A stretch of 59,577 bases of DNA from contig CAYNMM010000120.1 of NCBI GenBank assembly GCA_964398355.1, forward strand, positions 1 to 59,577, given 5' to 3'. Positions 8,895 to 28,712 of this stretch are shown in pieces. The notes under the pieces are model-generated. The model saw only the letters and a list, made by a program, of their open reading frames with translations. It was not told where the DNA came from and searched no databases. Position numbers and translations under genes: made by a program. This DNA comes from an uncultured bacterium (GTDB lineage: Bacteria > Hydrothermota > Hydrothermia > B15-G9 > WFZT01). Positions within the stretch are counted from its first letter, which is position 1. The number at the start of each line of letters is the position of its first letter.

Positions 8895-8896
8895 AT

Positions 8897-10836: not shown

Positions 10837-10963
10837 ATCTTTTACACCTCTAATAAGATTTTTTTAATTTTTCGATTTACCCCCAATTTAAGGAACAGAT
10901 AAAGCCAGGAGTTATAAGGTTTTTGTAAATAGCAAAAAATCTTGAAAAGGATTTAAAAAATTT

Positions 10964-11007
10964 TTTTGTGAGGGCGGCGCTTTTTAAAAAGCGCCGCCCT
11001 CACAAAA
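10964..11007. terminator. Perfect 44-bp palindrome downstream of livK
   Basis: ttttgtgagggcggcgctttttaaaaagcgccgccctcacaaaa; U run follows on the minus strand. Confidence 0.7.
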
Positions 11008-11022
11008 TTAAATCTCTTTTTC

Positions 11023-12144
11023 TCAGTCAGGCTTAATCGTTGTTACATACACGAATTTTCCATTCTTAACAACTCTGATAACACCACTCTTCACAGCGTT
11101 ACCGTTGACGAGAGTGATAATTCCTGTAACGCCCTCAAAGTTCTTTGTATGGTCAAGAGCATCTCTGATCTTTGCAGGATCAGTACTTCCGGCTCTCTTT
11201 ATGGCATCCATGAGCAACATGTATGCATCGAAACCGAGCGCTCCAAGGGCGTCAGGAGCCTTATGATACTTCTTTCTAAAGATCTTTACGTACTTTTTAC
11301 CCAGTTCGGTCTCAGCGGCCTTTTCATCAAAGTGTGTGGAGTAGTAAAGTCCTTCAACGGCTTTTCCACCGATTTTAACCAGTTCAGGTGCCTCTGCACC
11401 GTCACCGGCAAGCAGTGTGGATTTGATTCCAAGCTCTCTTGCCTGACGGGCAATGAGAGCAATCTCTGTGTAATATCCGGGAATAACGATTACATCAGGA
11501 TGAAGCTTCTTGATAGCAGTCAACTGAGCCGTGAAATCCTGGTCACCTGTCTGATAGAACGCATGTGAAACCACCTTACCACCAAGTTGGGTGAATTTTT
11601 TAATAAAGAAGTTAGAAAGTCCAACAGAATAGTCCTGAGCAATATCAGTCAAAACAGCTGCTGTTTTTGCATGGAGGTAATTGACAGCAAATTTTGCAAG
11701 CATGTCACCCTGGAATGGGTCAATGAAGCATGCTCTAAAGACCCATTTCCTATTCTGTGTAACAAGGGGGTTTGTTGAAGAAGGGGTAATTTGAGGGACA
11801 TGATTCTCCTCGCAAATCGGTGCAATTGCAAGTGAGTGGGAAGAAGCTACGGCACCGATTATAGCAACAACATGATCTTTTTTGATCAATCTCTGGGCAA
11901 CATTCGCTGCCTCAATTTTATCAGACTTGTTATCACCAAGTACAAGTTTGACTTTCTTTCCAAGAACTGTAGGCTGCATTTCATGGGCAATCTGGATACC
12001 AGTCCAGGTCATCTGCCCAAATGCAGCCACTGCCCCGGTCATCTCAAGGTCAACACCGACCTTCACCACATCTTGAGCTTTAGCGTTACCGCCCAAGACG
12101 AGCAACCCTATGAGTATATATACCAGCGTAAGCAACCTCTTCAT
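11023..12144 (-). CDS. Branched-chain amino acid ABC substrate-binding protein (start revised to ATG 12144)
   Basis: Signal peptide MKRLL..., DNKSD, FRACFIDPFQG, DFTAQLT; SD AGGAGG upstream of 12144. Confidence 0.9.
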   Translation of the reverse strand: MKRLLTLVYILIGLLVLGGNAKAQDVVKVGVDLEMTGAVAAFGQMTWTGIQIAHEMQPTVLGKKVKLVLGDNKSDKIEAANVAQRLIKKDHVVAIIGAVASSHSLAIAPICEENHVPQITPSSTNPLVTQNRKWVFRACFIDPFQGDMLAKFAVNYLHAKTAAVLTDIAQDYSVGLSNFFIKKFTQLGGKVVSHAFYQTGDQDFTAQLTAIKKLHPDVIVIPGYYTEIALIARQARELGIKSTLLAGDGAEAPELVKIGGKAVEGLYYSTHFDEKAAETELGKKYVKIFRKKYHKAPDALGALGFDAYMLLMDAIKRAGSTDPAKIRDALDHTKNFEGVTGIITLVNGNAVKSGVIRVVKNGKFVYVTTIKPD

Positions 12145-12264
12145 ACGACACACCTCCTTTTATTTAATGCTGAAATATATTGTTTTATATATCGATCTGT
12201 CAACCTACTTTTCATGTTTCGAACTGAATATGAATCTTATAAATATTAGATTTTGCTGGATTTT

Positions 12265-13614
12265 TTATACAGAAAGGCTTAATTTATTATAAATTTCAAA
12301 TTTGTCAATAATTTTAACAGGTTTAACTATAGGTGCCAGGCCTCTAACATCGATAACCTTACCTATTAAATATGTTCCAGGAGGGTAATTCCCCAAAATT
12401 ACAGCTTTTATAAATCCTCTATTCCGGCCTGCCGAAAGGGACTTATCTTTCCTGGATTCACCTTCAACAAGAAAATCATAAAATTTCCCTATCATCTTTG
12501 TCCTCTGGTTATATGCTACCCTATTAATCTCTTCAATCAACGTTCTGAGGCGCTTGCCTTTAACTTCATTAGGCGTGTCATCTCTAAATTTTGACGCAAG
12601 AGTACCGGGCCTCGGACTGTAAATAAAAGTGAACGCATGATCAAATTTAACTTTTCTCACTACATCAAGTGTCTCCTCGAAATCATCATCCGTTTCCCCA
12701 GGGAAACCCACCATTATGTCAGTTGTTATCGTAGCCTCAGGAAGAACTTTTCTTATCGTTGAGACAATCTCGATATACTCATCTTTTGTATACCCTCTCC
12801 TCATGGCCTTCAGGATTGGAGTTGATCCCGCCTGGAGTGGGAGATGAATCCAATCAGTTATTCTCTTTGAATTTGCAATTACATTTAAAACCTTATAGGT
12901 TAAATCTCGTGGATGAGAAGTTGTAAAACGGATTCTTAAAAAATTCGTACTTTTATCAAGTAGCTCAAGAAGCTGGTAAAATTGTAGTTTACCATCGAAG
13001 TATGAATTCACATTTTGACCAAGTAGTGTTACCTCAACAACTCCCTGGCTCTGTAGATGAGTAAGCTCTTTCAATATATGTTCCGATGGTCGAGAAATTT
13101 CTCTCCCTCTTGTAAACGGGACAATACAGTACGAACAGAAGTTATCACACCCTTGCATGATATTCACATATTCTTGTATCCAAGTCGCCTGTCTTTTTAA
13201 CGGGACATCTGTCAGTTCAAGTAATCCAAAATCACCGCCGAGGATTCTTGTATCAGGCACGTTTCCTTCTAACAAGTTAAGGAGATAGTGTGGAAGTAAG
13301 GTATAACTTCTTGTGCCGAAAGCGAGATCGACACCGGGAATCGCGTCTTCTCCTTTGTGCTGCTGAGCAACACATCCGAGCATAACTGTAATCTTTCCGT
13401 ATTTCTTATAATCCCTAAGAAATTTAACGCCCCTTTCTTCAGCCTTATGTCTGACAGAACAGGTATTGGAAAGAACAATTTCCGCCTCTTCTGGGGATTT
13501 TACTTCCTCAAATCCAGCCAATTTAAGTGTTTCCGAAATAAGACGCGAGTCGTACACGTTCATCTGACATCCAAATGTCCTAATATAAAATCTTCTTTTA
13601 TTATGCCCGATCAT
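12265..13614 (-). CDS. miaB: tRNA methylthiotransferase
   Basis: TFGCQMNVYDS, radical-SAM CDNFCSYC, IVPFTRGRE, C-terminal TRAM-like region. Confidence 0.92.
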   Translation of the reverse strand: MIGHNKRRFYIRTFGCQMNVYDSRLISETLKLAGFEEVKSPEEAEIVLSNTCSVRHKAEERGVKFLRDYKKYGKITVMLGCVAQQHKGEDAIPGVDLAFGTRSYTLLPHYLLNLLEGNVPDTRILGGDFGLLELTDVPLKRQATWIQEYVNIMQGCDNFCSYCIVPFTRGREISRPSEHILKELTHLQSQGVVEVTLLGQNVNSYFDGKLQFYQLLELLDKSTNFLRIRFTTSHPRDLTYKVLNVIANSKRITDWIHLPLQAGSTPILKAMRRGYTKDEYIEIVSTIRKVLPEATITTDIMVGFPGETDDDFEETLDVVRKVKFDHAFTFIYSPRPGTLASKFRDDTPNEVKGKRLRTLIEEINRVAYNQRTKMIGKFYDFLVEGESRKDKSLSAGRNRGFIKAVILGNYPPGTYLIGKVIDVRGLAPIVKPVKIIDKFEIYNKLSLSV

Positions 13615-15298: not shown

Positions 15299-16264
15299 AT
15301 GTTAGAGATAATCCTAAGAAGACTCTGGCAAAGCATAATTGTACTGCTGGCGGTTTCAATACTTGTATTTGTAATGGTATACGTATCAGGAGATCCAGTT
15401 GAGCTACTTGCGCCGCCGGATGCAACAGAGGTGGAGGTTGCTCAACTTAGAAAAGCTCTTGGTCTGGACAAACCTCTTCACGTTCAATATCTGCAATTTC
15501 TCAAGCACGCCCTACATGGGAACCTTGGATATTCCTATGTAAATAATGCACCAGCAGTGGAACTAATTTTTGAACGTATGCCAGCGACATTTGAACTCGC
15601 TATGATGGCTACAATTATAGCAGTAATCTTCGGGATCCCATTCGGTATCATAGCTGCAGTAAATCCAAAAAAGATATACAGCAAGGCTATAATGATAGGT
15701 TCACTTTTTGGTATTTCATTTCCAACTTTCTGGGTTGGGGTTATGTTAATCCTGATTTTTGCAGTAACTCTTGGATGGTTACCCTCATCGGGCAGAGGTG
15801 AAACTGTCAAAGTTTTTGGTATCCCCTGGAGTTTTCTCACGTGGGACGGCATCAAACATCTTATTTTGCCATCAGTAACACTTGCAGGTTACCATCTCGC
15901 TTTGATCGTCCGTCTTGTCCGTGCAGGGATGATGGAGGTATTACTTCAGGACTACATAAAATTTGCGAAAATTAAAGGGGTATCTAAACGGAAAATAATT
16001 TTTGTTCATGCTCTAAAGAATATTATGATCCCCGTTATAACAATTATTGGTTTGAACTTTGGTGGAATCCTTGCATTTGCAGTAGTAACAGAGACTATCT
16101 TTGCATGGCCTGGCATGGGAAAGCTTGTTATTGACTCAATCCATCTGCTCGATAGACCCGTCGTGGTTGCGTATCTTATGATAGTAGCAGTCATATTTGT
16201 CATCATTAATCTCCTCGTTGATATCGCATACACATTTCTTGATCCAAGGATAAGATTGAAATGA
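15299..16264 (+). CDS. Peptide/nickel ABC permease (DppB/OppB-like)
   Basis: GDPV, LGLDKPL, PATFELA, HALKN, ETIFAWPGMG. Confidence 0.93.
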   Translation: MLEIILRRLWQSIIVLLAVSILVFVMVYVSGDPVELLAPPDATEVEVAQLRKALGLDKPLHVQYLQFLKHALHGNLGYSYVNNAPAVELIFERMPATFELAMMATIIAVIFGIPFGIIAAVNPKKIYSKAIMIGSLFGISFPTFWVGVMLILIFAVTLGWLPSSGRGETVKVFGIPWSFLTWDGIKHLILPSVTLAGYHLALIVRLVRAGMMEVLLQDYIKFAKIKGVSKRKIIFVHALKNIMIPVITIIGLNFGGILAFAVVTETIFAWPGMGKLVIDSIHLLDRPVVVAYLMIVAVIFVIINLLVDIAYTFLDPRIRLK

Positions 16265-17133
16265 AGCGAATTTTTAAGAATGAAACTGTTCAGGAATTTT
16301 TCGAAAGTAAAGAAGCAGTATTTGGTCTTGTCTTAATAATAGTACTCACACTGGCCGCAATTTTTGCAAATTTTATCGCCCCACAGAATCCCTATGATCT
16401 AAAGGAACTAAATCTCCAAAATGCATACAAACCACCTGGTTATGTTGCCAATGGTATCAGGTTTTTACTTGGGACCGATGACCAGGGAAGAGGGGTTTTT
16501 TCAACTATTCTTTATGGGATGAGAATATCGTTATTTGTTGGAGTTGTCAGCACAGTTTTTTCGGCTATTATCGGGACAATCCTCGGACTAATAGCTGGTT
16601 ACTTCGGTGGAAAAGTTGACATGCTCATTATGAGACTGGCTGATATTCAACTTTCCTTCCCTGCCCTTTTAATTGCATTAATGATTATGGCTATCTGGGG
16701 ACAAGGACTTGATAAGATTATCATTGCTATTACAGTCGTTGGATGGGTTTATTACGCCAGAACAGTTAGAGGCTCGACTCTTGCCGAAAGGGAAAAGGAG
16801 TATGTTGACTCAGCACGAGTAGTTGGTGTCGGCCATTTAGGTATTATGTTTAAACACATACTACCAAATGTCCTCGCACCAGTTATAGTGATAGGAACGG
16901 TAAGAATAGCAAACGCCATCATTCTCGAAGCAACTCTTTCATTCCTTGGCCTTGGTGTTCCTGTGACCAAACCGTCACTCGGTTCTATGATTGCTTCAGG
17001 GTATCAGGTTTTATTTTCTGGATACTGGTGGGTTTCTGTTTTTCCAGGAATAGCCCTTATGTTAATTGTTATGGGAATTAACCTCGTAGGTGATAGGTTA
17101 AGAGATATTTTGAACCCAAAATTGAAAAGATGA
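16261..17133 (+). CDS. Peptide/nickel ABC permease (DppC/OppC-like)
   Basis: LGTDDQGR, HILPN, EATLSFLGLG. Confidence 0.93.
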   Translation: MKRIFKNETVQEFFESKEAVFGLVLIIVLTLAAIFANFIAPQNPYDLKELNLQNAYKPPGYVANGIRFLLGTDDQGRGVFSTILYGMRISLFVGVVSTVFSAIIGTILGLIAGYFGGKVDMLIMRLADIQLSFPALLIALMIMAIWGQGLDKIIIAITVVGWVYYARTVRGSTLAEREKEYVDSARVVGVGHLGIMFKHILPNVLAPVIVIGTVRIANAIILEATLSFLGLGVPVTKPSLGSMIASGYQVLFSGYWWVSVFPGIALMLIVMGINLVGDRLRDILNPKLKR

Positions 17134-18131
17134 CAGCAATTTTAGAAGTTAAAAACCTGAAAACATATTTTTTCACAAAGAGAGGAGTTGTAAAAGCAGT
17201 TGACGATGTAAGTTTTGAAGTATATGAAAAAGAAATCCTCGGGATTGTTGGTGAATCTGGCGCAGGAAAATCTATAACGGGATTCTCCATTCTCAAGGCA
17301 ATAGACCCACCTGGCAGGATAGTCGATGGGCATATTTATTTCAGAGGTGATGATCTTGTACCGAAGTCTGATGAGGAAATGAGAAAAATACGAGGCAATA
17401 AAATCAGCATGGTTTTTCAAGACCCACTGACATCATTAAATCCGGTTTTTACCATTGGCTACCAGCTTGAAGAGGCTATAAAGGTTCACAACCCACACAT
17501 GTCCAGAAGTGAAATAAGAGAACGTAGCATTGATTTGTTAAAAAGTGTAGGAATTCCTTCACCGGAGAAAAGACTGAGAGATTATCCTCATCAATTTTCA
17601 GGGGGTATGAGACAGAGGGTTGTTATTGCTATCGCTCTTGCGAACAATCCCGATCTTGTAATAGCAGACGAGCCCACCACTGCTCTCGATGTTACAATCC
17701 AGGCACAGGTTTTAAACCTGATGAAGCGTCTATCCCGGGAAAAAGGGTCATCCATAATTTTAATTACACATGATATGGGAGTCGTAGCCCAAATGGCAGA
17801 TAGAATCGCTGTTATGTACGCAGGGAAAATGGTTGAAATAGGCCCAACTGAAGAAATCATTTTTAACCCCAAACACCCTTATACAATTGGTTTGATAAGA
17901 TCCATACCTAAACTCTCAGGTAGAACAGAAAAACGGTTATATCAAATTCCGGGCATCATGCCAAGTTTATTGAATTTACCTCCTGGATGTGCCTTTGCGC
18001 CAAGATGTTTTTGCAAAACAGATATCTGTGAAAAGGATATGCCACAGTTTGAAAAAGTTGGAGAAAATCATTACGTTAGATGCTTTAATTTCAGGAGAAT
18101 AGCTGATGACAGAAAGTCTTGTAAAAGTTGA
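17130..18131 (+). CDS. Peptide ABC ATPase (DppD/OppD-like)
   Basis: GESGAGKS, YPHQFSGGMRQR, HPYT, GCAFAPRC. Confidence 0.93.
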   Translation: MTAILEVKNLKTYFFTKRGVVKAVDDVSFEVYEKEILGIVGESGAGKSITGFSILKAIDPPGRIVDGHIYFRGDDLVPKSDEEMRKIRGNKISMVFQDPLTSLNPVFTIGYQLEEAIKVHNPHMSRSEIRERSIDLLKSVGIPSPEKRLRDYPHQFSGGMRQRVVIAIALANNPDLVIADEPTTALDVTIQAQVLNLMKRLSREKGSSIILITHDMGVVAQMADRIAVMYAGKMVEIGPTEEIIFNPKHPYTIGLIRSIPKLSGRTEKRLYQIPGIMPSLLNLPPGCAFAPRCFCKTDICEKDMPQFEKVGENHYVRCFNFRRIADDRKSCKS

Positions 18132-19104
18132 AAATCTGAGAAAATATTTCCCTGTAAAATTGGGGATGTTTGAAGGTTGGCATTTTGAAAACGGAAAACT
18201 TAAGAGAAAGAGACTGTATGTTAAAGCAATAGATGGTGTATCTTTTGAGATTAATAAAGGTGACACCTTCGCACTTGTTGGCGAAAGCGGGTGCGGTAAA
18301 ACAACAACAGGTAGAACAATAGTTGGACTCTATAAACAAACCGAGGGTAGAATTTTCTTTAAAGGCAAATCCGTTGACGAAGTCTTGAAAACCTCACCTA
18401 AGGATTTTAAGAAGAATGTTCAAATGATATTTCAGGATCCATATTCATCGTTAAATCCGAGGATGAAGGTTTATAATCTCATTAGTGAGCCTTTAAGAGT
18501 TCACAAACTTGTTTCAACAAAAGCTGAAGAGAGAGAAAGAGTTGAAGAAATAATGGTAAATGTAGGACTTGAACCTGAATATATGAGTAGATATCCACAT
18601 CAGTTTTCAGGCGGTCAGAGGCAGAGGATTGCAATAGCAAGGGCTCTTGCAACAGAGCCTGAATTTATAGTGGCTGATGAGCCTATATCTGCTCTCGACG
18701 TCTCTATCCGGGCACAGATTTTGAATCTCATGGAAGATTTGCAAGAAAAATTTGGTCTCACATACCTTTTTATAGCCCACGATCTCAGCGTGGTCAGGCA
18801 TATTTCCAACAAAACTGCAGTCATGTATCTCGGCCGGATTGTGGAAATGGGGAAAACTGACGAAATCTTCTCTAATCCACTTCATCCTTACACAAAAACC
18901 CTGTTCGATTCAATCCCTTCTGTCGAGAAGGTAAAGCAGCCATTAAAAGTCACTATTGAAGGTGAGGTTCCTTCCCCAATAAATCCACCACCCGGTTGTC
19001 CATTCCATCCAAGATGTCCACATGCTACTGAAAGATGTAAGAAAGAAAGGCCTGAGTTGAAAGAAGCATCACCGGGCCATTTTGTGTCATGTTTTCTTTA
19101 TTGA
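18106..19104 (+). CDS. Peptide ABC ATPase (DppF/OppF-like)
   Basis: GESGCGKTT, SGGQRQR, PPPGCPFHPRC. Confidence 0.93.
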   Translation: MTESLVKVENLRKYFPVKLGMFEGWHFENGKLKRKRLYVKAIDGVSFEINKGDTFALVGESGCGKTTTGRTIVGLYKQTEGRIFFKGKSVDEVLKTSPKDFKKNVQMIFQDPYSSLNPRMKVYNLISEPLRVHKLVSTKAEERERVEEIMVNVGLEPEYMSRYPHQFSGGQRQRIAIARALATEPEFIVADEPISALDVSIRAQILNLMEDLQEKFGLTYLFIAHDLSVVRHISNKTAVMYLGRIVEMGKTDEIFSNPLHPYTKTLFDSIPSVEKVKQPLKVTIEGEVPSPINPPPGCPFHPRCPHATERCKKERPELKEASPGHFVSCFLY

Positions 19105-19150
19105 ACAAATACGTGTTATACATTAAAAATCCAAAAAGGAGGTTAGCAGT

Positions 19151-20683
19151 ATGAAGAAGTTGTCAGTACTGCTTGCACTGTTCTTTGCAGGAACAGTGGC
19201 AGCTAAAACATTGGTGGTCGGACTTTCGTCCGAGCCAAGATCCGGCGATCCCTTCGCCTTTAATGAAACCCCGACCAACTCCTTCAATTACAATATCTAC
19301 GATGCTCTCGTGATGCTTGATGCACATCTTAGAGTCAAACCAGGTCTTGCTACATCCTGGGAGATCAAAGATCCCCGCACCATTGTCTTTCACCTCAGAA
19401 AAGGCGTTAAATTCCACGACGGGACACCTTTCGATGCCTATGATGTTAAATACACAGTCGACAGAGCTAAAAATTGGGAAAAATCTCAGTTCAAGGTTTA
19501 CTTCAAGCCGATCAAAGATGTCATCATCAAAGATAAATACACTGTGATTTTCAAACTAAGCAGACCCGCCCCCGTACTCATCAGAGATTTAAGAAGATTG
19601 AGGATTATGTCAAAAGAGTCCACGGAAGGAAAATCCCCCGATTACATAGCATTCCATCCAATGGGTACAGGCCCATACAAGTTCAAAGAATGGGTAAAAG
19701 GAGATCACATCACTCTTGTTGCTAACAAAGATTATTGGGGGCCCAAACCTTACTTTGATAAGGTTATTCTCAGACCATTAACAAATGATGCTGCAAGAAC
19801 AGCCGCTCTACTTTCGGGCGCCGTTGATGTAATCGAAGACGTGCCTCTCACAGATGCAGAAAGAATTGCCAAGAACCCCAAATTCTCATTCTTCAAAACC
19901 GACGGACTCCGACTCATCTTTGTGGGTGTTGATGTTGCAAGAGACAAGATCTTCAAAGGCAAAACTCCTCACGGTGAAAATCCGTTCAAAGACGTTAGAG
20001 TTAGAAAGGCGTTTTACTACGGAATCGATGTAAATGGGATTATCAAATATATCAACCGTGGCTATAATTCTCCGGCAAGTCAATATTTCCCAAGCACTGT
20101 ATTTGGTTATGATCCGACTATCAAGAGAGCACCTTATGATCCGGAAAAGGCGAAAGAACTCCTGAAGGAAGCTGGATATCCTAATGGCTTTGAAGTTACA
20201 CTTGATGCACCAAATGATAGATACATTAATGATGAAAAAGTTGCAGCCGCTATAGCAGCAGATCTCGCAAAAATAGGGATTAAGGTTAAAGTTAACGCAA
20301 TTCCAAAGGCCGTATTCTTCCCTATGGTAAACAGCAACAAGACCAGCTTCTTCCTTCTCGGATGGTCCTGCTCTTCAGCTGATGGTGCAGCTTTCTTTGA
20401 CAATATCCTTCACACAAGGGATAAAGAGAAGGGATACGGAAGATTCAATGATGCTGGCTACTCAAATCCGACAGTTGATAAACTGATTGAAGAGCAGGAT
20501 ACCTTAATGAATCAGGCAAAGAGAGAAAAAATCATGCACAAAATCACAAGACTGGCTCTCAAAGATATGGCCTATATACCGCTTTATTACTATGTGAACC
20601 TGTTTGCGGCGAAAAAAGGAATTGTGTTCACTCCAAGAGCCGACCACGTGATGTATTACAGAGATTTCAGAGAAGTGAAGTAA
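19151..20683 (+). CDS. Peptide ABC substrate-binding protein (family 5)
   Basis: Signal peptide, LRKGVKFHDG, GTGPYKF; SD AGGAGG. Confidence 0.93.
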   Translation: MKKLSVLLALFFAGTVAAKTLVVGLSSEPRSGDPFAFNETPTNSFNYNIYDALVMLDAHLRVKPGLATSWEIKDPRTIVFHLRKGVKFHDGTPFDAYDVKYTVDRAKNWEKSQFKVYFKPIKDVIIKDKYTVIFKLSRPAPVLIRDLRRLRIMSKESTEGKSPDYIAFHPMGTGPYKFKEWVKGDHITLVANKDYWGPKPYFDKVILRPLTNDAARTAALLSGAVDVIEDVPLTDAERIAKNPKFSFFKTDGLRLIFVGVDVARDKIFKGKTPHGENPFKDVRVRKAFYYGIDVNGIIKYINRGYNSPASQYFPSTVFGYDPTIKRAPYDPEKAKELLKEAGYPNGFEVTLDAPNDRYINDEKVAAAIAADLAKIGIKVKVNAIPKAVFFPMVNSNKTSFFLLGWSCSSADGAAFFDNILHTRDKEKGYGRFNDAGYSNPTVDKLIEEQDTLMNQAKREKIMHKITRLALKDMAYIPLYYYVNLFAAKKGIVFTPRADHVMYYRDFREVK

Positions 20684-20690
20684 GGAATTT

Positions 20691-20721
20691 TTCAGGGCGC
20701 CCCCTTCGGGGGCGCCCTGAA
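20691..20721. terminator. GC hairpin after the peptide ABC operon
   Basis: ttcagggcgccccc-ttc-gggggcgccctgaa. Confidence 0.7.
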
Positions 20722-21029
20722 TCTTATAAATAAAATCTGCTGGACTAATAACTAATTATCAGATTAAAAAAATCTCCTAAATTACCCAACCAACATAGTA
20801 TTTCACACCTAAAAAAGACAAAAAGGGCCAATTCCACTCATAAAATTCAAGCAACACGTATCTCTGAGCAATCGAAAACTCAATACTTAAATTACCATTA
20901 AAATCCTTCAAATATAAAACACTGCGAAAATTAAGAAATCCATCCACCCACTTTTCCATCCATATTCTAAAACCCTCTTGACTAAGGGGATTGACAAAGT
21001 TTATTTGCACTTTTATTTATAATAACGCT

Positions 21030-21893
21030 ATGGAAAACATTATAAAGGAAAGCGTAAAAAATTTGAGTGAGGTGGGAAAAGAAGCCCCAAGATTGGAAGG
21101 AGTACCTTCTGGAGTTGAGGGGCTTGATGATCTATTTTTCACGTCTACGATTGAGAACGGAAAGGTAAAAAAGAGATCACTGGGAGGGATTCCACGCTAT
21201 GCTGTTGTAAATCTAACGGGAATATCGGATACTGGAAAATCTCTTATGGTTGAACAATTTGCCGTCAAACAAGCATCACTTGGCAAACGAGTTGCCTTTA
21301 TTACAGTTGAGACTCCAGCAACGTTTCTCTCTATTGGTCTTAAAGAGCGGGCCAAGGCAATGGGGATAGAAGATACAAAATCTGTAGAGGACAACATTTA
21401 TATAATTGATGCAGCAAGTTATGGCGCTCTGCGCGAAGATATAAAGGTTTTACTTGATACTCTTGCTTACACTATAAAAACCTATAAAATCAAATACACA
21501 GTGATTGACTCGGTTACCGGATTATACGAAGCAAAGGAGATGCTCGCACGAACTTTTGTACGACAGATATTCAATTTCCTGAAAAAATGGTACCAAACAG
21601 CCCTTCTCGTATCTCAAAAACGGTCCGGCCATGAAGAATTCTCCGCTGAAGCGGCTGGTGGTTACGCAGTCTCACACATTGTAGATTGTACATTGGTACT
21701 AACCAAGAAAATGATTCAGAGCCAGTATGATGAGAGACTTTATAAACGCCCCATAGGTGAAATGATCCGATTCTTCCGAATAGATGGATGCCGAATGTGT
21801 GGTCACGACACCGATACACATGTAATGGAAATAACCGAAGGTGGACTTGTAAAAATAGGTCCAAGACTCAAGGATCTTTTGAGAAAAACTTGA
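21030..21893 (+). CDS. Single-domain KaiC/RecA-like ATPase, thermophile AF_0795-type family (start revised to ATG 21030)
   Basis: PSGVEGLD, variant Walker A GISDTGKS, VIDS, SQKRSGHEE, AEAAGGYAVSHIVD, RIDGCRMCGH. Confidence 0.85.
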   Translation: MENIIKESVKNLSEVGKEAPRLEGVPSGVEGLDDLFFTSTIENGKVKKRSLGGIPRYAVVNLTGISDTGKSLMVEQFAVKQASLGKRVAFITVETPATFLSIGLKERAKAMGIEDTKSVEDNIYIIDAASYGALREDIKVLLDTLAYTIKTYKIKYTVIDSVTGLYEAKEMLARTFVRQIFNFLKKWYQTALLVSQKRSGHEEFSAEAAGGYAVSHIVDCTLVLTKKMIQSQYDERLYKRPIGEMIRFFRIDGCRMCGHDTDTHVMEITEGGLVKIGPRLKDLLRKT

Positions 21894-21909
21894 AAAAGGA
21901 GGTGAGACA

Positions 21910-22524
21910 ATGCCAGTTCTTCAACCGGATGAAATCAAAACTTATGATATTGACACTCTTGCCATTAGAGTTTTTTTAAAAGCACTCGAAATCCTTGGTG
22001 GTCCGAGAAAGCTTATCGAACTTAGAAATTTAACCTGGATCACTTCCTTAATGGAAGCCTCTTATGCCATCGTACTCTCGGAGGAATCTTTTAAAACGGA
22101 GGATGAAATTGCCTCTTTCCTGGGATTAACAAGACAAACTGTCAGAAATATTTTACGTGCGGATCCCGACCTTGTAATGGCAAAAATAGAGGGAGAGTTA
22201 AAGGAAAAGACTCCAAAAGCCCATACGGCGGGTGGACTTGCAAAAATCGCATACCGAGAAATTAAAGAAGGAAGAGATAATCTCAATATTTTCATATTCG
22301 CACTTCAAAGTGCCTCTGAAACACTTGGAATTTACTGGCCAATTGAGGTTCTTAAACGTATCAAGGGGCTTAACTTTCCTGTCGATAAGGATACCCTTAT
22401 GGAAAGGCTCTCTGGACTTAAAATCAAAGACAACCCTGCTGAGCAGATTCTGGAAAACCTTAGATATCCGGTTAAAAGTCCCAGTGATCTGCTTCACCAG
22501 ATTAGGGAGAATCTGGAGCAATAG
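21910..22524 (+). CDS. KaiC-associated HTH regulator with a C-terminal DUF2795-like segment
   Basis: LGGPRKLIE, HTH-like KTEDEIASFLGLTRQTVRNIL, AHTAGGLAK; C-terminal GLNFPVDKDTLME...SPSDLL. Confidence 0.7.
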   Translation: MPVLQPDEIKTYDIDTLAIRVFLKALEILGGPRKLIELRNLTWITSLMEASYAIVLSEESFKTEDEIASFLGLTRQTVRNILRADPDLVMAKIEGELKEKTPKAHTAGGLAKIAYREIKEGRDNLNIFIFALQSASETLGIYWPIEVLKRIKGLNFPVDKDTLMERLSGLKIKDNPAEQILENLRYPVKSPSDLLHQIRENLEQ

Positions 22525-22525
22525 A

Positions 22526-22560
22526 CAGGAGAGGGGAAAATTCCCCTCCCTGAATTTTTT
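22526..22560 (+). terminator. Internal hairpin plus T run between the HTH gene and DUF505
   Basis: caggagagggg-aaaatt-cccctccctg followed by aatttttt. Confidence 0.5.
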
Positions 22561-22575
22561 AAAAGGAGGTGAGTA

Positions 22576-24303
22576 ATGGTAATACTCAAAAGGCATGCAG
22601 AACTGTTGCTTAAAGCACGAGACGAAGGTGTAAAATTTGCTGATGTTCTTGGTGATGACATTCAGTATCTTGACCATCTTGACAAGATGGGATTAATAGA
22701 ACTCGATGATGAGGGAGTTTTTACGACAACTTACTCAGGCTCCCTCCTTGCGGAAACAATAGAAAGGGTGCCTGAGTTTGGTGGATTACCTCTCTCAGAC
22801 TGGAGTGATAATTTCAGATTCCTCGGATCTGAAATTATCACAATGCTTTACACATCGAAGTATGTACAGGGTAAAACCCACAAATCTTTCAATGACGAGC
22901 TTGAAAAGAGGGGATTTGCACTGAACGGGAATTTAACTCCTCTCGCTTACAATGTTATCGAACATTATGAGAAAGCACACCCAAAATTAACAATTTCAAA
23001 AGAACTTGCAGAAGCACTTCGTAAAATTCCTCCAGGACCAGGACTTACAAAGTTCCTCAAAATAGATAAGTTTCATCTTCTTGAACTGGAGTCGATGAGG
23101 CTGTTATCTTTTAGCATACCGAAAAGCGAAGTTTATTCTCTCTCAGGCCTCGGGCAACAAATAAGGGCAGCAATTATGACCAGCGCTCCGGCCTACGATG
23201 TTGTCATTGACGACAAGGTCTTAAAGCTCTTTTATGAAGGGAATTTTAAAGATTCCCCCATTTTTAACAAACTTGTCGCAATGGCTTTCATTTCTCCGGA
23301 GGGAAAGCTTCTCCAGGCGGGAAAACATCTTCTTTCCGCAGCAAAAATTTATTTCGAAGGTCCAATTACCGTCAATCCATCTCTACACCTTGACCTCTTT
23401 GATATCTATACACTCAAGGCAATTGCAGAACTCGAATCCGAGGGAGAAACTGAAATCAATGAAGAAAAGATTCGTTTGAAAGTCAAAAAGAAATTCGAGC
23501 TCGAAGAATTCAATCCAAAGTTATATCTCCACAGATTACTGGCCGTTAGACTGATCAATGTAAACTTTTCAGAGTCTTCTGCAATTTATAATTTAACAGA
23601 TTGGGGCAAAGAGGTTTACGAACATCAGAAATTATCTGAGAAATCTGTCCCTGCCCACGGAGTAAAATCTATAACATTGACAAGAATGGAGTTCACTGCA
23701 CCAGAATATCACTGGTTTATGGACGGAGAAAAAGCTGGACTTACGGGGAACGGATTTCCCTCAAAGGCTGGATTAACCTATGCAAAAATTGGGTCAAATG
23801 CGGAGAAAATTCCATTTGTCGAGAATGTAGAAATGAAGGCTCTAAGAATTTTGCCACTTTTCAATGGGAGCTATATCGACGAGCTTGAGAGATATTGGAA
23901 AGAGGACATTCCGTTGCTTGAAGTGCTCTCTTCTCTCGATGCGGATGGCATCGTGGATCTGTTGCCTGGAAATGCGGTTGTTCTCACTGAGGCAGGGAAA
24001 TTGATTAAAAGGGCACTTCAATCGGTTCCAGATTCCGTTCAATATCCCATTCATCCATTACTTGTAAAAATTCTTGCGAAGTTGAATGACGAAATACAAT
24101 CAGGTAATGATTTAAGCTCAGCATTAAAAAAGACGGAGAAATCTCTGGGAATTCCAGCAGACCTGTTTGAGGAGCTCATACTGTTTGCGAAGAGGGTGAA
24201 GTATATAGGAGCAAGGAACATAACTCCACATGGGAAATACATTGTTGAGGCATTCCAGAGATTAAGCGAGATCAGAAAAGTTTGGGAAGAGGTAATGGTT
24301 TAA
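22576..24303 (+). CDS. DUF505-like protein with repeated winged-helix-like units
   Basis: MVILKRH N-terminus, LESMRLL, PPGPG; repeated L..G...LT..G wing-like motifs. Confidence 0.65.
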   Translation: MVILKRHAELLLKARDEGVKFADVLGDDIQYLDHLDKMGLIELDDEGVFTTTYSGSLLAETIERVPEFGGLPLSDWSDNFRFLGSEIITMLYTSKYVQGKTHKSFNDELEKRGFALNGNLTPLAYNVIEHYEKAHPKLTISKELAEALRKIPPGPGLTKFLKIDKFHLLELESMRLLSFSIPKSEVYSLSGLGQQIRAAIMTSAPAYDVVIDDKVLKLFYEGNFKDSPIFNKLVAMAFISPEGKLLQAGKHLLSAAKIYFEGPITVNPSLHLDLFDIYTLKAIAELESEGETEINEEKIRLKVKKKFELEEFNPKLYLHRLLAVRLINVNFSESSAIYNLTDWGKEVYEHQKLSEKSVPAHGVKSITLTRMEFTAPEYHWFMDGEKAGLTGNGFPSKAGLTYAKIGSNAEKIPFVENVEMKALRILPLFNGSYIDELERYWKEDIPLLEVLSSLDADGIVDLLPGNAVVLTEAGKLIKRALQSVPDSVQYPIHPLLVKILAKLNDEIQSGNDLSSALKKTEKSLGIPADLFEELILFAKRVKYIGARNITPHGKYIVEAFQRLSEIRKVWEEVMV

Positions 24304-24308
24304 GGTTA

Positions 24309-24347
24309 TTGATGGGGCCGAAGGCCAAAGGCCTTCGGCCCCATCAA
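24309..24347. terminator. 18-bp-stem hairpin
   Basis: ttgatggggccgaaggcc-aaa-ggccttcggccccatcaa. Confidence 0.7.
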
Positions 24348-24383: not shown

Positions 24384-25241
24384 ATGTACGATCCTATCTC
24401 TTTATTATTTCTAATCCTATTTTTGTTCGGGTTAATTTATCCTCAGTTACAGCATAAGTTTCTTGTAGGAGGTAGACTATCACTCATAAAAAAACTCGAG
24501 AAGAAACGCGGTTCCCGTGTCATTACAATGATCCACAGACAGGAAAAAATCGGATTATTTGGAATACCTTTCTTCAGGTTCATTGATATCGAAGATTCTG
24601 AAGAAATATTAAGAGCTATCAGAATGACCCCGAAAGACGTACCCATTGACCTTGTCCTTCATACACCCGGTGGGCTCGTCCTCGCAGCAACACAGATAGC
24701 GAGGGCCCTCAAGGATCATCCAGCAAAAACTACCGTAATCGTTCCACACTACGCAATGAGTGGTGGTACGCTCATAGCCCTTGCAGCCGATGAAATAATA
24801 ATGGACCAGCATGCCGTTCTTGGCCCGGTCGATCCTCAGTTATCAGATTCACAGGGCGCAAGTGCCGTTCCTGCCGCATCGATAGTAAAAGTTGTTGAAG
24901 AAAAAGGGAAAGAAAACGTAGAAGATGATACCCTTATCAAGGCCGATGTGGCTAAAAAGGCCTTAGAACAGGTGAGAAATATTGTGTACAACTTGCTTGA
25001 AGGAAAACTCGATGAAGAAAAGAGGAAGGAAGTCGCAGATAAATTGTCACAGGGATACTATACTCATGACTATCCGATAACGGTTGAAGAAGCCCGCGCC
25101 ATGGGTTTAAAAGTTACAACAGAGGTTCCTCAGGAAGTCTATGATCTCATGAATCTCTATCCCCAGGCTCAGCATGGAAGACCTGGAGTGGAATTCATTC
25201 CTGTCCCCTATCATAGTCCCAAAGGTACCAACCACCAATAG
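24384..25241 (+). CDS. SDH-family ClpP-fold serine protease (DUF114), membrane anchored
   Basis: LHTPGG, AMSGGTLIALAAD, LGPVDPQ, THDYPI; N-terminal TM. Confidence 0.88.
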   Translation: MYDPISLLFLILFLFGLIYPQLQHKFLVGGRLSLIKKLEKKRGSRVITMIHRQEKIGLFGIPFFRFIDIEDSEEILRAIRMTPKDVPIDLVLHTPGGLVLAATQIARALKDHPAKTTVIVPHYAMSGGTLIALAADEIIMDQHAVLGPVDPQLSDSQGASAVPAASIVKVVEEKGKENVEDDTLIKADVAKKALEQVRNIVYNLLEGKLDEEKRKEVADKLSQGYYTHDYPITVEEARAMGLKVTTEVPQEVYDLMNLYPQAQHGRPGVEFIPVPYHSPKGTNHQ

Positions 25242-25243
25242 AT

Positions 25244-25293
25244 ATAAAGAAGTGGTGGGAGGGTTTTGGAAAAACCCTCCCACCACTTCTTTA
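25244..25293. terminator. Bidirectional hairpin between convergent genes
   Basis: ataaagaagtggtgggagggtttt-gg-aaaaccctcccaccacttctttat, 24-nt arms. Confidence 0.8.
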
Positions 25294-25307
25294 TCTTAAC
25301 GATTACC

Positions 25308-28300
25308 TCACTTCAGGATAATCATCTTCCTTGTTTTTACATTGTCATCTGTACGCAACTCATAAAAGTAGATTCCGCTCCTCAGATTGCTGGTTTTCAT
25401 AGTTATGCTATGTACACCTTTCGTCATAGTTCTATCTACCAGAGTGCGAACCACTCTTCCAGTAACATCATATAATGTCAGCTTAACCCTTTCAGTTTTA
25501 GGAATAACAAAAGAAATTGTGGTCCGATCCTTCACCGGATTTGGGGAGTTCTGGAATAGTTTGAAAGTATACTCGCCAGGAACGTTTCCTTCAGAAATTC
25601 CCACACCATAAGTTCCCACAATAGCTCTGATGAAGAAATCAACGGATAGTGCGTGCCATGTTCCATTTGCAAATCTGTAAGAGCTATTGAAATTACCTGG
25701 ATTATCAAGCAGGATCGCTGGTATCGTATCTCTGAATTCAACTCCTACATAGAATGGTGTGTTACCTGACACATAAAGATTCTCATTTCTTATATCAACA
25801 GCAGTCCACGCAAACGGATTATCAAGAGTATTAACAGGATAAATCTGGATCGGCTGGATTAACTCATTGCCAAGTGAATCCCAAACATGAACAGTCACTG
25901 TATCAAGTTGATGATTGTAATCGGTATAAAAATTGTAAAGAAGCGTTGTTACCCAGAGACTACCTGCAGGTGCATAATTGAATCTAACTGCAATAGAGTC
26001 ACCCGGATCAGGAAGAGTTATGTAACCAGGCATACCATCATCGCGGTAAAGAACCTTTCCAGCGATATGTTTGTAATGATCTGATTCAGCTCTATTTCCG
26101 AACATATCAATGGCCACGAAGTAATATTCAATAAATGTTCCAGGATCAAGTCCTCTGATGGTGTAATACCAGATGCCATTTACCGAGGAATCAGATACTG
26201 TAGTACTCCAGACACCATCAAGTGAATAGTAAAGTGTATCCATGGTAATATCTGAAGCGTCCATATATTTAACACTCAAAACCATGGAATCGATTACACT
26301 TGATGTGTCTGCAAGGGGTGTATGCACTATCATAGGTGGAGACGCATCTATGTAAGTGCCGATAATTTTCACATCATCAATAAACCAGCCATCCTCATTG
26401 TACGATGCATCGGAGACGAGTCTGAATCTTATTCTAACATCACTATTTCCACAGAAAGCTCCGAGATCGATATTTTCGAGGTTCCAGTGAGGCATTTCAC
26501 CGGTAAAAGATGCAACCGTTGTCCATGTGTTTCCACCGTCAACCGAAATGTCCACGTAACCATAGTCAAATCCTTGTTCTATCCAGTAAGCATCATAAAA
26601 TTGGAGATAGGCACCAATCACTCCGTTGCTCAAGTTTATTGGTTGTGTGAGATATGCTGTTAATGTGGTATCATCCGGATAATTCCCATTTGGACTATCT
26701 GTAAAAGAGAAGTTCCCAGAATGACTAACTGCACCTGTAACCTGCCAATCACCTGCCCAGTTATTTCCTCCATTTTCAAAATCATCTTCGAAAAGAAGAG
26801 TTCCATTTATCGTTCCAGGAGTCGGAGGCAAAGGTGAAAAGTCACAATTGTTACAATCAGTGTCAGTAGAATCAGGTATTCTCGCAAGTGAATACCCGGA
26901 CCATACATCAACAGCTGGTATGTTTTCACCATAGAAGTACCAGCCCGATGTGTCCTCAGGGCCATATCCCACTGCATCAAGAATCACTGTATCATTAGCC
27001 GTGATATAGGCAAGAACAACATTATCAGGTCCGTTTTGCCAGTTAACATTTGGATCAATTAGATCTGCGGAAATGATGGAAGAGTCCTGTGCAACAACAA
27101 AATAACCTGTGAAAGGAATGGTGTCACCAGAAAGGTCAATGGTAGCATAGATTTCTCCATTGCTTCCATTGATCCCGATAAGATACACATTATCAAGTGA
27201 TGTACCAGGAGCTCCTACGAGCTCTGTAAACGTGCCGTGGTCTGTTCCTGGAGAATCGTAATAGATTTCATTGATTTTTACATTCGGTATAGAAGGCGGC
27301 TGTGCTGTTAAATCCACAACATCGTTGGAATCTCTTGGCTCTATTTTGTAATTTCCATAGGTATAAGTGAGAGGACCTTGCACCATGTACGCGTGCCCGG
27401 AGTCCGGATTATAACTGTACCCCATATCATCTACTCTTATTGGACCTGAACCATCATCAATCTCCCATTCTCCATAACCGAGATCCGGATTGGTACAAAC
27501 TGCACTGTCAACCTTCACATAAACACCTTCCCACTGCTCATCTGATAAATCCCCTGTAGAGACAACTGCTGGTTGAATGACACGTCCAGTATCATCTATA
27601 TTAATTGAGGAAATGTTCTTTATCTCTGTAAGACCATAGTGCTCTGCAACCTCACCTACAATGGTTATGTCATAACCCCGACTAACGGTAGGCGTGGAAC
27701 CTGTATAGACAAATATACCATTCCACGGCAGGGCAACATCACCACTATCTCCTGTATCCTGCAAGAAAAATCCATAAGAGTATACTCCTGTCACAACTCC
27801 CCAGGTCATCACTTTCATACCAACCATTGGAGATGTATCGGCATGTCCCTGAATCTCCTCAATTGATGCCGGTACAAACGGCAAAATTTGCAAGATATTG
27901 ATCGTGTAAAACAAGTTCTGCGGAATAACAGCAAACGAGGTATCTGTATAAGACGAAAGGAATGCCCTCTGAGAAAAACTATCTGGAGCAACTATATCGT
28001 AAATATCCGGATCGAAAATATAACTGGAACCACCTCCACCATTAGTTGAAGACGCTAATGAATCGACTTCAGCATAGAACCCACCATTTGATACACCTGC
28101 ATAGATCGCTGTATACATAAACCATCCCTGCGGCTCAGGTAAGGAATCAAGAGAAATGCCAAATTCGATAATATCATTGGTATAGTTAAAAACAACTGTG
28201 TCTCCCGTATTGAATGTCTGACCAAGAGGATTCAATACACTTATATTCCCATTATTCAAAACTATCATTATGTTCCATTTCAACCCTGTAGCCACATCGG

Positions 28301-28712
28301 ATGAGTCGAAAGCCCAGTTTGCACCGAGAGTTGTATCCACAGAAATTAAAACCGTTACTATTGTATTTGGAGTCAAATTCGCCATTCTGACAAGACCATA
28401 AAAGTAATCACTGACGGAATCAGAAGGAGTAATATCAATTGTGTATCTTACTTCTTCTATGTCTGCAATTCCTGTATCTACACTCGTTGGGTATGAGTAA
28501 GCCTCCGGATTATCTGATGCATCGGGGGCATCTCCCCCATCTCCCCAATCATCGTACAACGCATCTTCTACTATCCACTCTCCTGAGTCCACAACTGCCG
28601 TATCAGCACCTATCCCAACCCAATCCGATGGATCACCATCCACCGTTACAGGATGAGCCTTTATTAGCCCTGTTCCAAATACCAGGGCGACAATTACCAA
28701 TATTTTCTTCAT
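25308..28712 (-). CDS. Secreted 1134-aa mosaic protein with OB-fold, lamin-tail-like and beta-sandwich domains and a T9SS type A/FlgD-Ig-like C-terminal domain
   Basis: Signal peptide; SIEEIQG...GFFLQD; VKINEIYYD; DYGYVDISVDGG...GWFIDDV; QNSPNPV...YDVTGRVV...SGIYFY. Confidence 0.8.
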   Translation of the reverse strand: MKKILVIVALVFGTGLIKAHPVTVDGDPSDWVGIGADTAVVDSGEWIVEDALYDDWGDGGDAPDASDNPEAYSYPTSVDTGIADIEEVRYTIDITPSDSVSDYFYGLVRMANLTPNTIVTVLISVDTTLGANWAFDSSDVATGLKWNIMIVLNNGNISVLNPLGQTFNTGDTVVFNYTNDIIEFGISLDSLPEPQGWFMYTAIYAGVSNGGFYAEVDSLASSTNGGGGSSYIFDPDIYDIVAPDSFSQRAFLSSYTDTSFAVIPQNLFYTINILQILPFVPASIEEIQGHADTSPMVGMKVMTWGVVTGVYSYGFFLQDTGDSGDVALPWNGIFVYTGSTPTVSRGYDITIVGEVAEHYGLTEIKNISSINIDDTGRVIQPAVVSTGDLSDEQWEGVYVKVDSAVCTNPDLGYGEWEIDDGSGPIRVDDMGYSYNPDSGHAYMVQGPLTYTYGNYKIEPRDSNDVVDLTAQPPSIPNVKINEIYYDSPGTDHGTFTELVGAPGTSLDNVYLIGINGSNGEIYATIDLSGDTIPFTGYFVVAQDSSIISADLIDPNVNWQNGPDNVVLAYITANDTVILDAVGYGPEDTSGWYFYGENIPAVDVWSGYSLARIPDSTDTDCNNCDFSPLPPTPGTINGTLLFEDDFENGGNNWAGDWQVTGAVSHSGNFSFTDSPNGNYPDDTTLTAYLTQPINLSNGVIGAYLQFYDAYWIEQGFDYGYVDISVDGGNTWTTVASFTGEMPHWNLENIDLGAFCGNSDVRIRFRLVSDASYNEDGWFIDDVKIIGTYIDASPPMIVHTPLADTSSVIDSMVLSVKYMDASDITMDTLYYSLDGVWSTTVSDSSVNGIWYYTIRGLDPGTFIEYYFVAIDMFGNRAESDHYKHIAGKVLYRDDGMPGYITLPDPGDSIAVRFNYAPAGSLWVTTLLYNFYTDYNHQLDTVTVHVWDSLGNELIQPIQIYPVNTLDNPFAWTAVDIRNENLYVSGNTPFYVGVEFRDTIPAILLDNPGNFNSSYRFANGTWHALSVDFFIRAIVGTYGVGISEGNVPGEYTFKLFQNSPNPVKDRTTISFVIPKTERVKLTLYDVTGRVVRTLVDRTMTKGVHSITMKTSNLRSGIYFYELRTDDNVKTRKMIILK

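Follow-up and report, generated by a model that had tools for sequence, protein, structure and literature searches.

The window, a 59,577-nucleotide (nt) stretch of DNA from an uncultured Hydrothermota bacterium (contig CAYNMM010000120.1 of assembly GCA_964398355.1), carries four co-oriented genes between positions 21030 and 25241. They encode a KaiC-like ATPase, a helix-turn-helix (HTH) partner protein of the TIGR03879 family, a DUF505 protein and a serine protease of the SDH family. We read these genes, with a probability of about 0.4, as a four-gene operon in which a KaiC+HTH switch is joined to a DUF505-scaffolded membrane protease, the two parts being coupled in this lineage. The reading starts from the composition, layout, modularity and conservation of the operon and from the catalytic motifs and folds of its products, all of which were observed directly. 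The four genes are as follows.

21030..21893, forward strand: KaiC-like ATPase gene (TIGR03878), open reading frame of 287 amino acids (aa)
21910..22524, forward strand: TIGR03879 partner gene (gene 2), open reading frame of 204 aa, 16-nt gap after the KaiC gene
22576..24303, forward strand: DUF505 gene (gene 3), open reading frame of 575 aa, 51-nt gap after gene 2
24384..25241, forward strand: SDH-family ClpP-fold serine protease gene (gene 4), open reading frame of 285 aa, 80 nt past the DUF505 gene

A preliminary description of this DNA had presented the first three genes as the unit. Their coordinates, shared orientation and gaps of 16 and 51 nt proved exact, but the protease gene had been overlooked and the unit holds four genes. 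Its family assignments were confirmed by hidden Markov model searches: the first product matched TIGR03878 (thermo_KaiC_2, the AF_0795 family) at 438.2 bits against a cut-off of 232.2, over model positions 1-258 of 259; the second matched TIGR03879 (near_KaiC_dom) at 115.4 bits against 65.1, over residues 27-121; and the third matched PF04458 (DUF505) at 377.9 bits against a gathering threshold of 28.7. The fourth product exceeded the cut-offs of both PF01972 (442.6 bits) and NF047768 (421.7 bits). The boundary and internal hairpins noted earlier were also found, all three far beyond chance (z scores are listed below), and the multi-winged-helix character proposed for DUF505 was borne out by its structural model, by Foldseek matches to winged helices and by four homologous modules. 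As had been stated, neither kaiA nor kaiB was found in the operon or in the flanking genes scanned (positions 12265-32758, the rest of the window lying outside that scan).

The evidence for a coupled block comes from related loci (numbered with the prefix L) in two censuses. One was centred on DUF505 and covered 80 genome loci, with a nine-sequence alignment as the query; its taxa were WOR-3, Hydrothermota, Aquificota, Thermodesulfobacteriota, Thermotogae, Deferribacteres, Caldithrix and Campylobacterales. The other was centred on KaiC and covered 80 metagenome loci. The four-gene block was kept in about 10 WOR-3/Hydrothermota loci whose flanks differed. The complete order was seen in L003-L006, L009, L062 and L086-L088, the protease gene of L087 being cut by the contig end, and truncated copies were seen in L001, L002 and L008. 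None of the window's 12 flanking genes recurred at the block loci, apart from weak (25-36% identical), paralogue-like matches of ATP-binding cassette (ABC) ATPases. Identities to the window's proteins were as follows.

L003-L005: KaiC 94-95%, HTH partner 90%, protease 90-93%, DUF505 79-81%
L086: KaiC 82%, HTH partner 79%, protease 79%, DUF505 59%
L006, L009, L062, L087 and L088: KaiC 68-76%, HTH partner 63-72%, protease 69-76%, DUF505 38-39%

DUF505 thus evolves much faster than its operon neighbours, having 38-39% identity where the other three proteins keep 63-76%. No related locus that extended far enough lacked the protease beside the other three genes. Furthermore, the HTH and DUF505 genes abut or overlap in L003, L004 and L086, and the DUF505 and protease genes overlap in the more distant relatives L006, L007 and L009, in place of the hairpin that stands between them in the window.

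The KaiC census bore out the earlier statement that ATPases of this type adjoin a regulatory-domain partner. A TIGR03879 gene lay directly downstream of KaiC in 45 of the 65 evaluable loci, often overlapping it (median gap -3 nt), and upstream in three more. DUF505 was present in only 3 of 45 KaiC loci (L086-L088, the window's own lineage), and the protease in 6 of the 80. In the DUF505 census, KaiC and TIGR03879 genes stood directly upstream of DUF505 in 6 of 61 evaluable loci, with the TIGR03879 gene present also in two truncated loci, and the SDH protease directly downstream in 11 of 66. All DUF505 loci with KaiC/HTH or protease genes came from metagenome-assembled genomes (MAGs) of WOR-3/Hydrothermota, except L002, which is labelled 'uncultured bacterium'. 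Of the neighbourhood conservation envisaged in the preliminary description, the widespread KaiC-HTH pair and the block in about 10 loci therefore stand, but the link to DUF505 is restricted to a lineage, each part also occurs alone, and these counts do not bear out DUF505 as a general partner or effector of such ATPases.

The same families were also found in other arrangements. L007 has an overlapping DUF505-protease gene pair with no KaiC within 8 kb. L121 has the order HTH-protease-KaiC, with junctions of 3 nt or overlapping and with DUF505 absent; L127 and L130 have the order protease-KaiC-HTH, DUF505 again being absent; and L074 (Aquificota) has the order protease-ribE-DUF505-KaiC. Since the KaiCs of these four loci are only 60-64% identical to that of the window, and those of L121 and of the L127/L130 lineage 63% identical to each other, we take L074, L121 and L127/L130 to be independent lineages. 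The separate occurrence of the parts, together with the census counts, indicates that the operon is a junction of two modules, KaiC+HTH and DUF505+protease. Because the block co-diverges while its flanks are unshared, because its genes abut or overlap, and because other lineages permute the same families, these comparisons argue that the junction is meaningful and would be more than inherited adjacency.

The transcription signals of the operon are as follows.

20691..20721, forward strand: 5' boundary hairpin, 14-bp perfect GC-rich stem, -31.4 kcal/mol, z -6.7
20991..21023, forward strand: promoter-like core, TTGACA at 20991-20996 and TATAAT at 21018-21023
22526..22552, forward strand: internal hairpin between genes 2 and 3, -19.8 kcal/mol, z -3.5, followed by TTTTTT, 27 nt to gene 3
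24309..24347, forward strand: hairpin between genes 3 and 4, 18-bp perfect stem, -38 kcal/mol, z -8.8, 36 nt to the next ATG
25244..25294, no strand assigned: bidirectional terminator hairpin at the operon end, -40.3 kcal/mol, z -9.9

The first hairpin terminates the gene that precedes the operon (19151-20683) and encodes an Opp/Dpp-type ABC binding protein, and the last is common to the operon end and a convergent gene (25308-28712, reverse strand). The KaiC ATG begins 6 nt past TATAAT, and a Shine-Dalgarno sequence is absent there. TTGACA, TATAAT and the ATG context are unchanged in L003, L004 and L005; L086 keeps TTGACA and the ATG context, its -10 region being TATTAATAT. Further upstream, the sequence of these relatives is unalignable. 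Given the 6-nt distance, the lack of a Shine-Dalgarno sequence and the invariant context in relatives, the KaiC-gene mRNA is probably leaderless. Note that an alternative TTG start for this gene lies at 20991, and that the promoter assignment at 20991-21023 is tentative because the 21-nt spacer between TTGACA and TATAAT is non-canonical. A strong GGAGG ribosome-binding site precedes each of genes 2, 3 and 4, that of gene 2 being AAGGAGGTGA.

A hairpin of unlike sequence occupies the position equivalent to 22526-22552 in L005 and L002, and none is present in L003, L004 and L086, where the two genes overlap. In the window this hairpin probably attenuates or partly terminates transcription as it passes from the KaiC+HTH module into DUF505. 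The stretches between the two internal hairpins and the genes after them (27 and 36 nt, respectively) are too short for a promoter, and one transcript with attenuating hairpins is therefore the simplest layout. The gene-end hairpins at 20691-20721, 24309-24347 and 25244-25294 are perfect and GC-rich, with 14-24 bp and -31 to -40 kcal/mol. Terminators of mesophiles are typically much weaker, and such very long gene-end hairpins may reflect adaptation to growth at high temperature. No Rfam family was matched anywhere in the window.

The KaiC-like protein also matched PF06745 at 181 bits. Its Walker A residues G64 and K70, catalytic E94 and Walker B D160 were invariant in all 84 family sequences, and Walker A S71 was Ser in 81 and Thr in 3 of them, by which the ATPase looks catalytically competent. 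The closest alignment was to the CI ATPase half of cyanobacterial KaiC, and the best PDB sequence matches were likewise KaiC CI domains (E 7e-10 to 1e-8); the circadian KaiC models TIGR02655 and NF006799 gave 33.3 and 40 bits against cut-offs of 546 and 408. No RadA/RadB recombinase features were found, the scores being 19-39 bits against cut-offs of 172-403. The position weakly aligned with the KaiC phosphosite S431 was Ser in 37, Gly in 26, Ala in 15 and Pro in 6 of the 84 sequences, and a KaiC-type autophosphorylation site was rejected because S215 is not conserved. A zinc-site motif, GCRxCGHDTxxH, was also dropped as a family feature, with C257 in 62% and H264 in 71% of sequences. The protein is basic (isoelectric point, pI, 8.9) and has no membrane segment. 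By its description, the TIGR03878 family would be restricted to thermophiles, which fits the relatives with names, a minority of the matches; these came from Aquifex, Thermocrinis, Thermotogae, Hydrothermae, WOR-3 and Kryptobacter. In Thermocrinis albus the KaiC gene is solitary.

The HTH partner consists of an N-terminal TIGR03879 domain, with a putative HTH at about residues 63-84, and a C-terminal DUF2795/MTH865-like domain at about 140-204. At 63-84, sub-threshold matches to HTH_23, Crp, sigma-70 region 4 and ParB-HTH models were obtained in 37-43 of 45 family members, and a DUF2795 match in 41 of the 45. The AlphaFold2 model is all-helical, with a mean predicted local distance difference test score (pLDDT) of 81.5. 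A fold search of the PDB gave no significant match for the protein, local HTH matches standing at E of about 1; the best sequence and fold matches of the HTH region were ParB DNA-binding domains, weak and not significant (E 0.03 to 1). The protein is acidic (pI 5.6). The relatives listed for the full-length partner were 63-93% identical, and at least five bacterial phyla are represented among those with names. The family is very small, with 137 clusters at 50% identity in a set of 1.84 billion representative proteins, and has three forms: full-length, N-domain-only (about 120 aa) and C-domain-only (60-90 aa). The C-terminal domain was fused most often to nitroreductases (P0298, P0315, P0326, P0318), and further to DUF835 plus TPR (P0330), a KaiC fragment (P0286) and a radical-SAM protein (P0222). 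Recurrence by itself and in fusions with unrelated enzymes is what an adaptor-type domain would show, and the DUF2795/MTH865-like domain appears to be a mobile module of this type. The HTH gene also occurs as an orphan. In a Deferribacteres MAG, which has DUF505 on another contig, it lies beside queH-ruvBAC; in Thermosulfurimonas marina, rpoD and a DNA polymerase III delta-prime-like gene (PF13177) are in its vicinity.

The AlphaFold2 model of DUF505 (pLDDT 93.5, predicted TM-score 0.91) contains about eight winged-helix-like units, organized as four homologous double-winged-helix modules (residues 1-135, 136-265, 266-411 and 412-575). Comparison of the modules with hhalign gave probabilities of 88-97% and E values of 1e-6 to 1e-10. 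A Foldseek search of the PDB returned no global match, and single winged helices were matched with a probability of about 1, those of STIV F93, AF1382, Sso10a, TubR and PadR. With a pI of 5.7 the protein is acidic. R112 and E172 aside, only Gly, Pro, Leu and Trp are invariant in it, with no catalytic-looking set. Since the invariant residues are non-catalytic, the protein is acidic and its evolution is fast, DUF505 looks more likely to be a scaffold or adaptor than an enzyme. The nearest relatives (79-88% identical) came from candidate division WOR-3 MAGs, and the remoter ones (38-40%) from further WOR-3 and Candidatus Hydrothermota MAGs as well as other vent-type MAGs. The operon's host is probably a hot-vent bacterium of WOR-3 or of the related Hydrothermota. 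All named relatives were bacterial except one distant, partial DUF505 from Korarchaeota (E 7e-7). At seven loci from several phyla (L037, L043, L046, L047, L064, L070 and L078), the gene directly upstream of DUF505 on the same strand codes for a helical protein of about 290 aa whose N-terminus resembles a signal peptide.

The protease has a hydrophobic N-terminus, MYDPISLLFLILFLFGLIY, which is a predicted membrane anchor. Its core motifs are identical across phyla: HTPGG, PHYAMSGGTLIALAADEI and AVLGPVDPQ are the same in the proteases of the window, L074, L121 and L007. A weak match to NfeD1b_N (50.6 bits) and matches to S49 proteases were also obtained. PDB sequence searches returned no solved relative of the protease, the HTH partner or DUF505.

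Elsewhere, the gene past the HTH partner is variable, and 18 of 43 evaluable loci have no same-strand gene following the pair. Reverse gyrase lies directly upstream of the KaiC+HTH pair in L103 and directly downstream in L129, L155 and L159, starting 6 nt after the pair in L159, and it lies about 5 kb from the pair in L161. The positions of these reverse gyrase genes are as follows.

L103: 2-1432
L129: 1877-2629
L155: 1814-2656
L159: 9426-12614
L161: 3-2807

The KaiCs concerned fall into three lineages (L103; L129; L155/L159/L161), mutually 52-62% identical. Chance alone would place reverse gyrase beside the pair in about 0.1 of 80 loci, if each genome has one such gene, and the adjacency is a possible functional link between two thermophile-specific systems. 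SMC stands beside the pair in one lineage (L108, L113, L119 and L122), DnaK in L133 and L140, a REC-HisKA gene in L092, L117 and L168, and an M54 peptidase in L093; in Kryptonia-type loci, two-component signalling genes follow the pair. In another WOR-3 lineage (L169-L171), KaiC and HTH genes are followed by a Macro-domain gene. About 840 nt without a called gene separate KaiC from HTH in L169 (5160-6000), where the related L171 has a 96-aa open reading frame. About 1.3 kb from the KaiC-HTH-Macro cluster of L171, which is from a Thermotogae-labelled MAG, lies a set of Cas1, Cas2, Cas4, DevR/Cas7 and Cas8-like genes (7929-12545); this proximity is probably coincidental.

Heat shock strongly induces the Phr targets PF1931, a KaiC-domain protein, and PF1932, a predicted regulator, in Pyrococcus furiosus (PMC10746257). 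With reverse gyrase, DnaK, SMC and proteases as neighbours of the pair, and with this heat-shock-induced Pyrococcus pair, the circumstantial evidence points to a role for KaiC+HTH in high-temperature stress or in genome or protein maintenance, not in timekeeping. The names of short TIGR03879-type clusters gave Caldicellulosiruptor and Tectimicrobiota only, and no link to Pyrococcus PF1932.

For the physical interactions and the biological output of the operon, we infer the following scheme. The KaiC-like protein would act as a nucleoside triphosphate-driven ring, whose nucleotide state would set binding or release of the HTH partner and hence the partner's access to DNA. In this lineage, the KaiC/HTH switch would be coupled to the DUF505/protease pair, in which the fast-evolving DUF505 would have no enzymatic role and would serve the membrane protease as scaffold or adaptor. 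The protease may process a component of the system, thereby providing an input via regulated proteolysis, or may be the controlled output. The hairpins between the modules would tune the relative expression of the two.

Several observations weigh against this four-gene scheme. No KaiC is adjacent to 55 of 61 DUF505 genes, and no DUF505 to 42 of 45 KaiC genes; with most of them unlinked, any coupling must be lineage-specific. The HTH protein and DUF505 are both acidic, so that DNA binding is not assured. Strong hairpins part the units, and since the one at 24309-24347 matches true gene-end terminators in strength, independent expression fits too. The window contains no CIRCE heat-shock element, and no reverse gyrase, SMC or DnaK gene was found near the operon in it. 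No conserved operator was found upstream of KaiC, a k-mer search over 83 loci having given generic AT-rich words only. Finally, PF1931/PF1932 are likened to the pair by description and not by established TIGR03877/TIGR03879 membership.

The census counts and the hairpins would also suit two unrelated modules that lie side by side by inherited synteny, without functional coupling. Consistent with this, each module was found alone (L007, L082 and L169-L171), and the divergence rate of DUF505 is very unlike that of KaiC and the HTH protein. On the other hand, the block survives to 38% DUF505 identity with flanks reshuffled even in the closest relatives, promoter space is absent after both internal hairpins, and the HTH and DUF505 genes run together in three relatives as described above. 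In addition, independent permutations tie the protease to KaiC/HTH (L121, L127 and L130) and DUF505 to KaiC (L074). We consider uncoupled juxtaposition, the main rival, somewhat unlikely and keep the coupled four-gene operon as the preferred reading.

An unlikely extension of this preferred reading is that the KaiC+TIGR03879 pair would be a thermophile-specific, ATP-driven regulator of heat stress or temperature sensing common to bacteria and archaea, with lineage-specific outputs such as reverse gyrase, DnaK, SMC and membrane proteases. In the window's lineage, the pair would regulate a new protease complex or be regulated by it, and the pseudo-fourfold DUF505 of that complex would cap or gate an SDH protease ring.

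The genes might instead serve DNA or chromosome maintenance in thermophiles, with a RecA-superfamily ATPase acting on DNA, a ParB-like HTH loader and a nucleoid-associated DUF505. The adjacency of reverse gyrase in three divergent KaiC lineages and of SMC in one would fit such a role, as would the orphan HTH genes near queH-ruvBAC in the Deferribacteres MAG and near rpoD and the PF13177 gene in T. marina, the ParB domains as best, if weak, matches of the HTH region, the basic KaiC-like protein, and a partner conservation of 63-93% across phyla, which is unusual for a transcription factor. Against it stand a ParB similarity below significance, the acidic nature of DUF505, a membrane protease for which no role on DNA is obvious, the two-component genes that come after the pair in Kryptonia-type loci, and the absence of RadA/RadB-specific features, with scores far under the cut-offs. 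We regard this role as distinctly unlikely.

Quite improbable, in our view, is the three-gene system of the preliminary description, in which the KaiC ATPase acts on the HTH regulator and a DUF505 effector and the protease is irrelevant. The three genes are indeed adjacent and co-oriented with short gaps, their family assignments are right, and DUF505 is a winged-helix array, but every long-enough KaiC-HTH-DUF505 relative carries the protease. Moreover, DUF505 pairs more often with the protease (11/66) than with KaiC (6/61), doing so without KaiC in L007, and the protease joins KaiC/HTH without DUF505 in L121, L127 and L130.

An ATP-dependent proteolytic machine, in which a ring of the KaiC-like protein would power the ClpP-fold protease, much as in ClpXP or in RadA/Sms with its RecA-like ATPase and Lon-like domain, and DUF505 would be an adaptor, gate or substrate, would suit the protease gene lying between HTH and KaiC with overlapping junctions in L121 and next to KaiC in L127, L130 and L074, and the fourfold DUF505 could match the ring symmetry of S49/SppA-type proteases, which form tetramers or octamers, but it is very improbable, given that the protease occurs at only 6 of 80 KaiC loci, that it is membrane-anchored while the KaiC-like protein has no membrane segment, that RecA-fold hexamers are, to our knowledge, not polypeptide unfoldases, and that S49/SDH-type proteases are self-compartmentalised and ATP-independent.

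Among the nearest known systems is the TIGR03878/TIGR03879 pair of TIGRFAMs/NCBIfam, which is listed there without a function and for which we know of no defined input or output. The window likewise has KaiC and then the partner, both well above cut-offs, and the named relatives and named vent MAGs are of thermophile or hydrothermal-vent taxa. Unlike the usual pair, the window adds DUF505 and the SDH protease, as in 3 of 45 KaiC loci, and its partner is long (about 205 aa, with the extra DUF2795/MTH865-like domain), whereas many relatives are N-domain-only. With cyanobacterial KaiABC the window's protein has in common the RecA-superfamily KaiC ATPase fold and catalytic motifs. It differs in being single-domain, whereas cyanobacterial KaiC is a CI-CII duplication, in the unconserved residue aligned with S431 and in the lack of kaiA/kaiB nearby.

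Archaeal KaiC-like ATPases were reportedly proposed as signal-transduction hubs by Makarova, Galperin and Koonin in 2017. The likeness to such hubs lies in a single-domain ATPase beside a small HTH/adaptor gene with variable third genes (REC-HisKA) or a DUF835 fusion; the case in the window is bacterial. P. furiosus PF1931/PF1932 resemble the pair as a KaiC-domain protein and predicted regulator with consecutive gene numbers in a hyperthermophile, but they are archaeal, and the window has no Phr- or CIRCE-type element. NfeD/stomatin-type operons and S49 SppA also involve a membrane-anchored ClpP-fold serine protease, and in L006, L007 and L009 the protease is translationally coupled to a non-enzymatic partner gene, DUF505; the partner in NfeD/stomatin operons is an SPFH/stomatin protein, whereas here it is a winged-helix array and the protease is of the SDH family (PF01972). 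Tandem winged helices in one chain, as in DUF505, are known from RPC62/RPC3 of RNA polymerase III, MukF and TFIIH p52, which were among the best whole-chain Foldseek matches. These matches were not significant (E of at least 0.03, TM-score of about 0.1), and DUF505 differs in its own fourfold double-winged-helix plan.

The flanks of the operon are ordinary chromosomal genes, including an Opp/Dpp-type ABC transporter (15299-20683), a multihaem cytochrome and two DUF2079 membrane proteins. The convergent gene at 25308-28712 (reverse strand) encodes a protein of 1134 aa that has a C-terminal sorting domain for type IX secretion as well as an InhA-like MAM domain, which fits an organism of WOR-3/FCB type. 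None of the four operon proteins matched a PADLOC-DB 2.0 defence model at E up to 0.01, and with such flanks an anti-phage defence reading was dropped.

The pairing of KaiC with TIGR03879 is already known from family descriptions, and each of the four genes is a clear member of a known, uncharacterised family. Nothing relevant to DUF505, TIGR03878, TIGR03879, AF_0795 or SDH_sah was found in the literature searched, the 'DUF505' matches examined, in two papers on Haloferax, being dropped since they actually concern DUF5059. The four-gene architecture, the fourfold plan of DUF505 and the links to the protease and to reverse gyrase were likewise not found in that literature. Few of the unexplained regulators of thermophiles are as common as single-domain KaiC-like ATPases, and this locus and its relatives give testable sets of partners for them: the four-gene block, the reverse gyrase adjacency and the Pyrococcus heat-shock lead. 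If the proposed couplings were untrue, the locus would be an ordinary juxtaposition of conserved hypothetical genes. If they were true, it would represent a new stress-response circuit for life at high temperature and would give the DUF505, TIGR03879 and SDH protease families their first functions.

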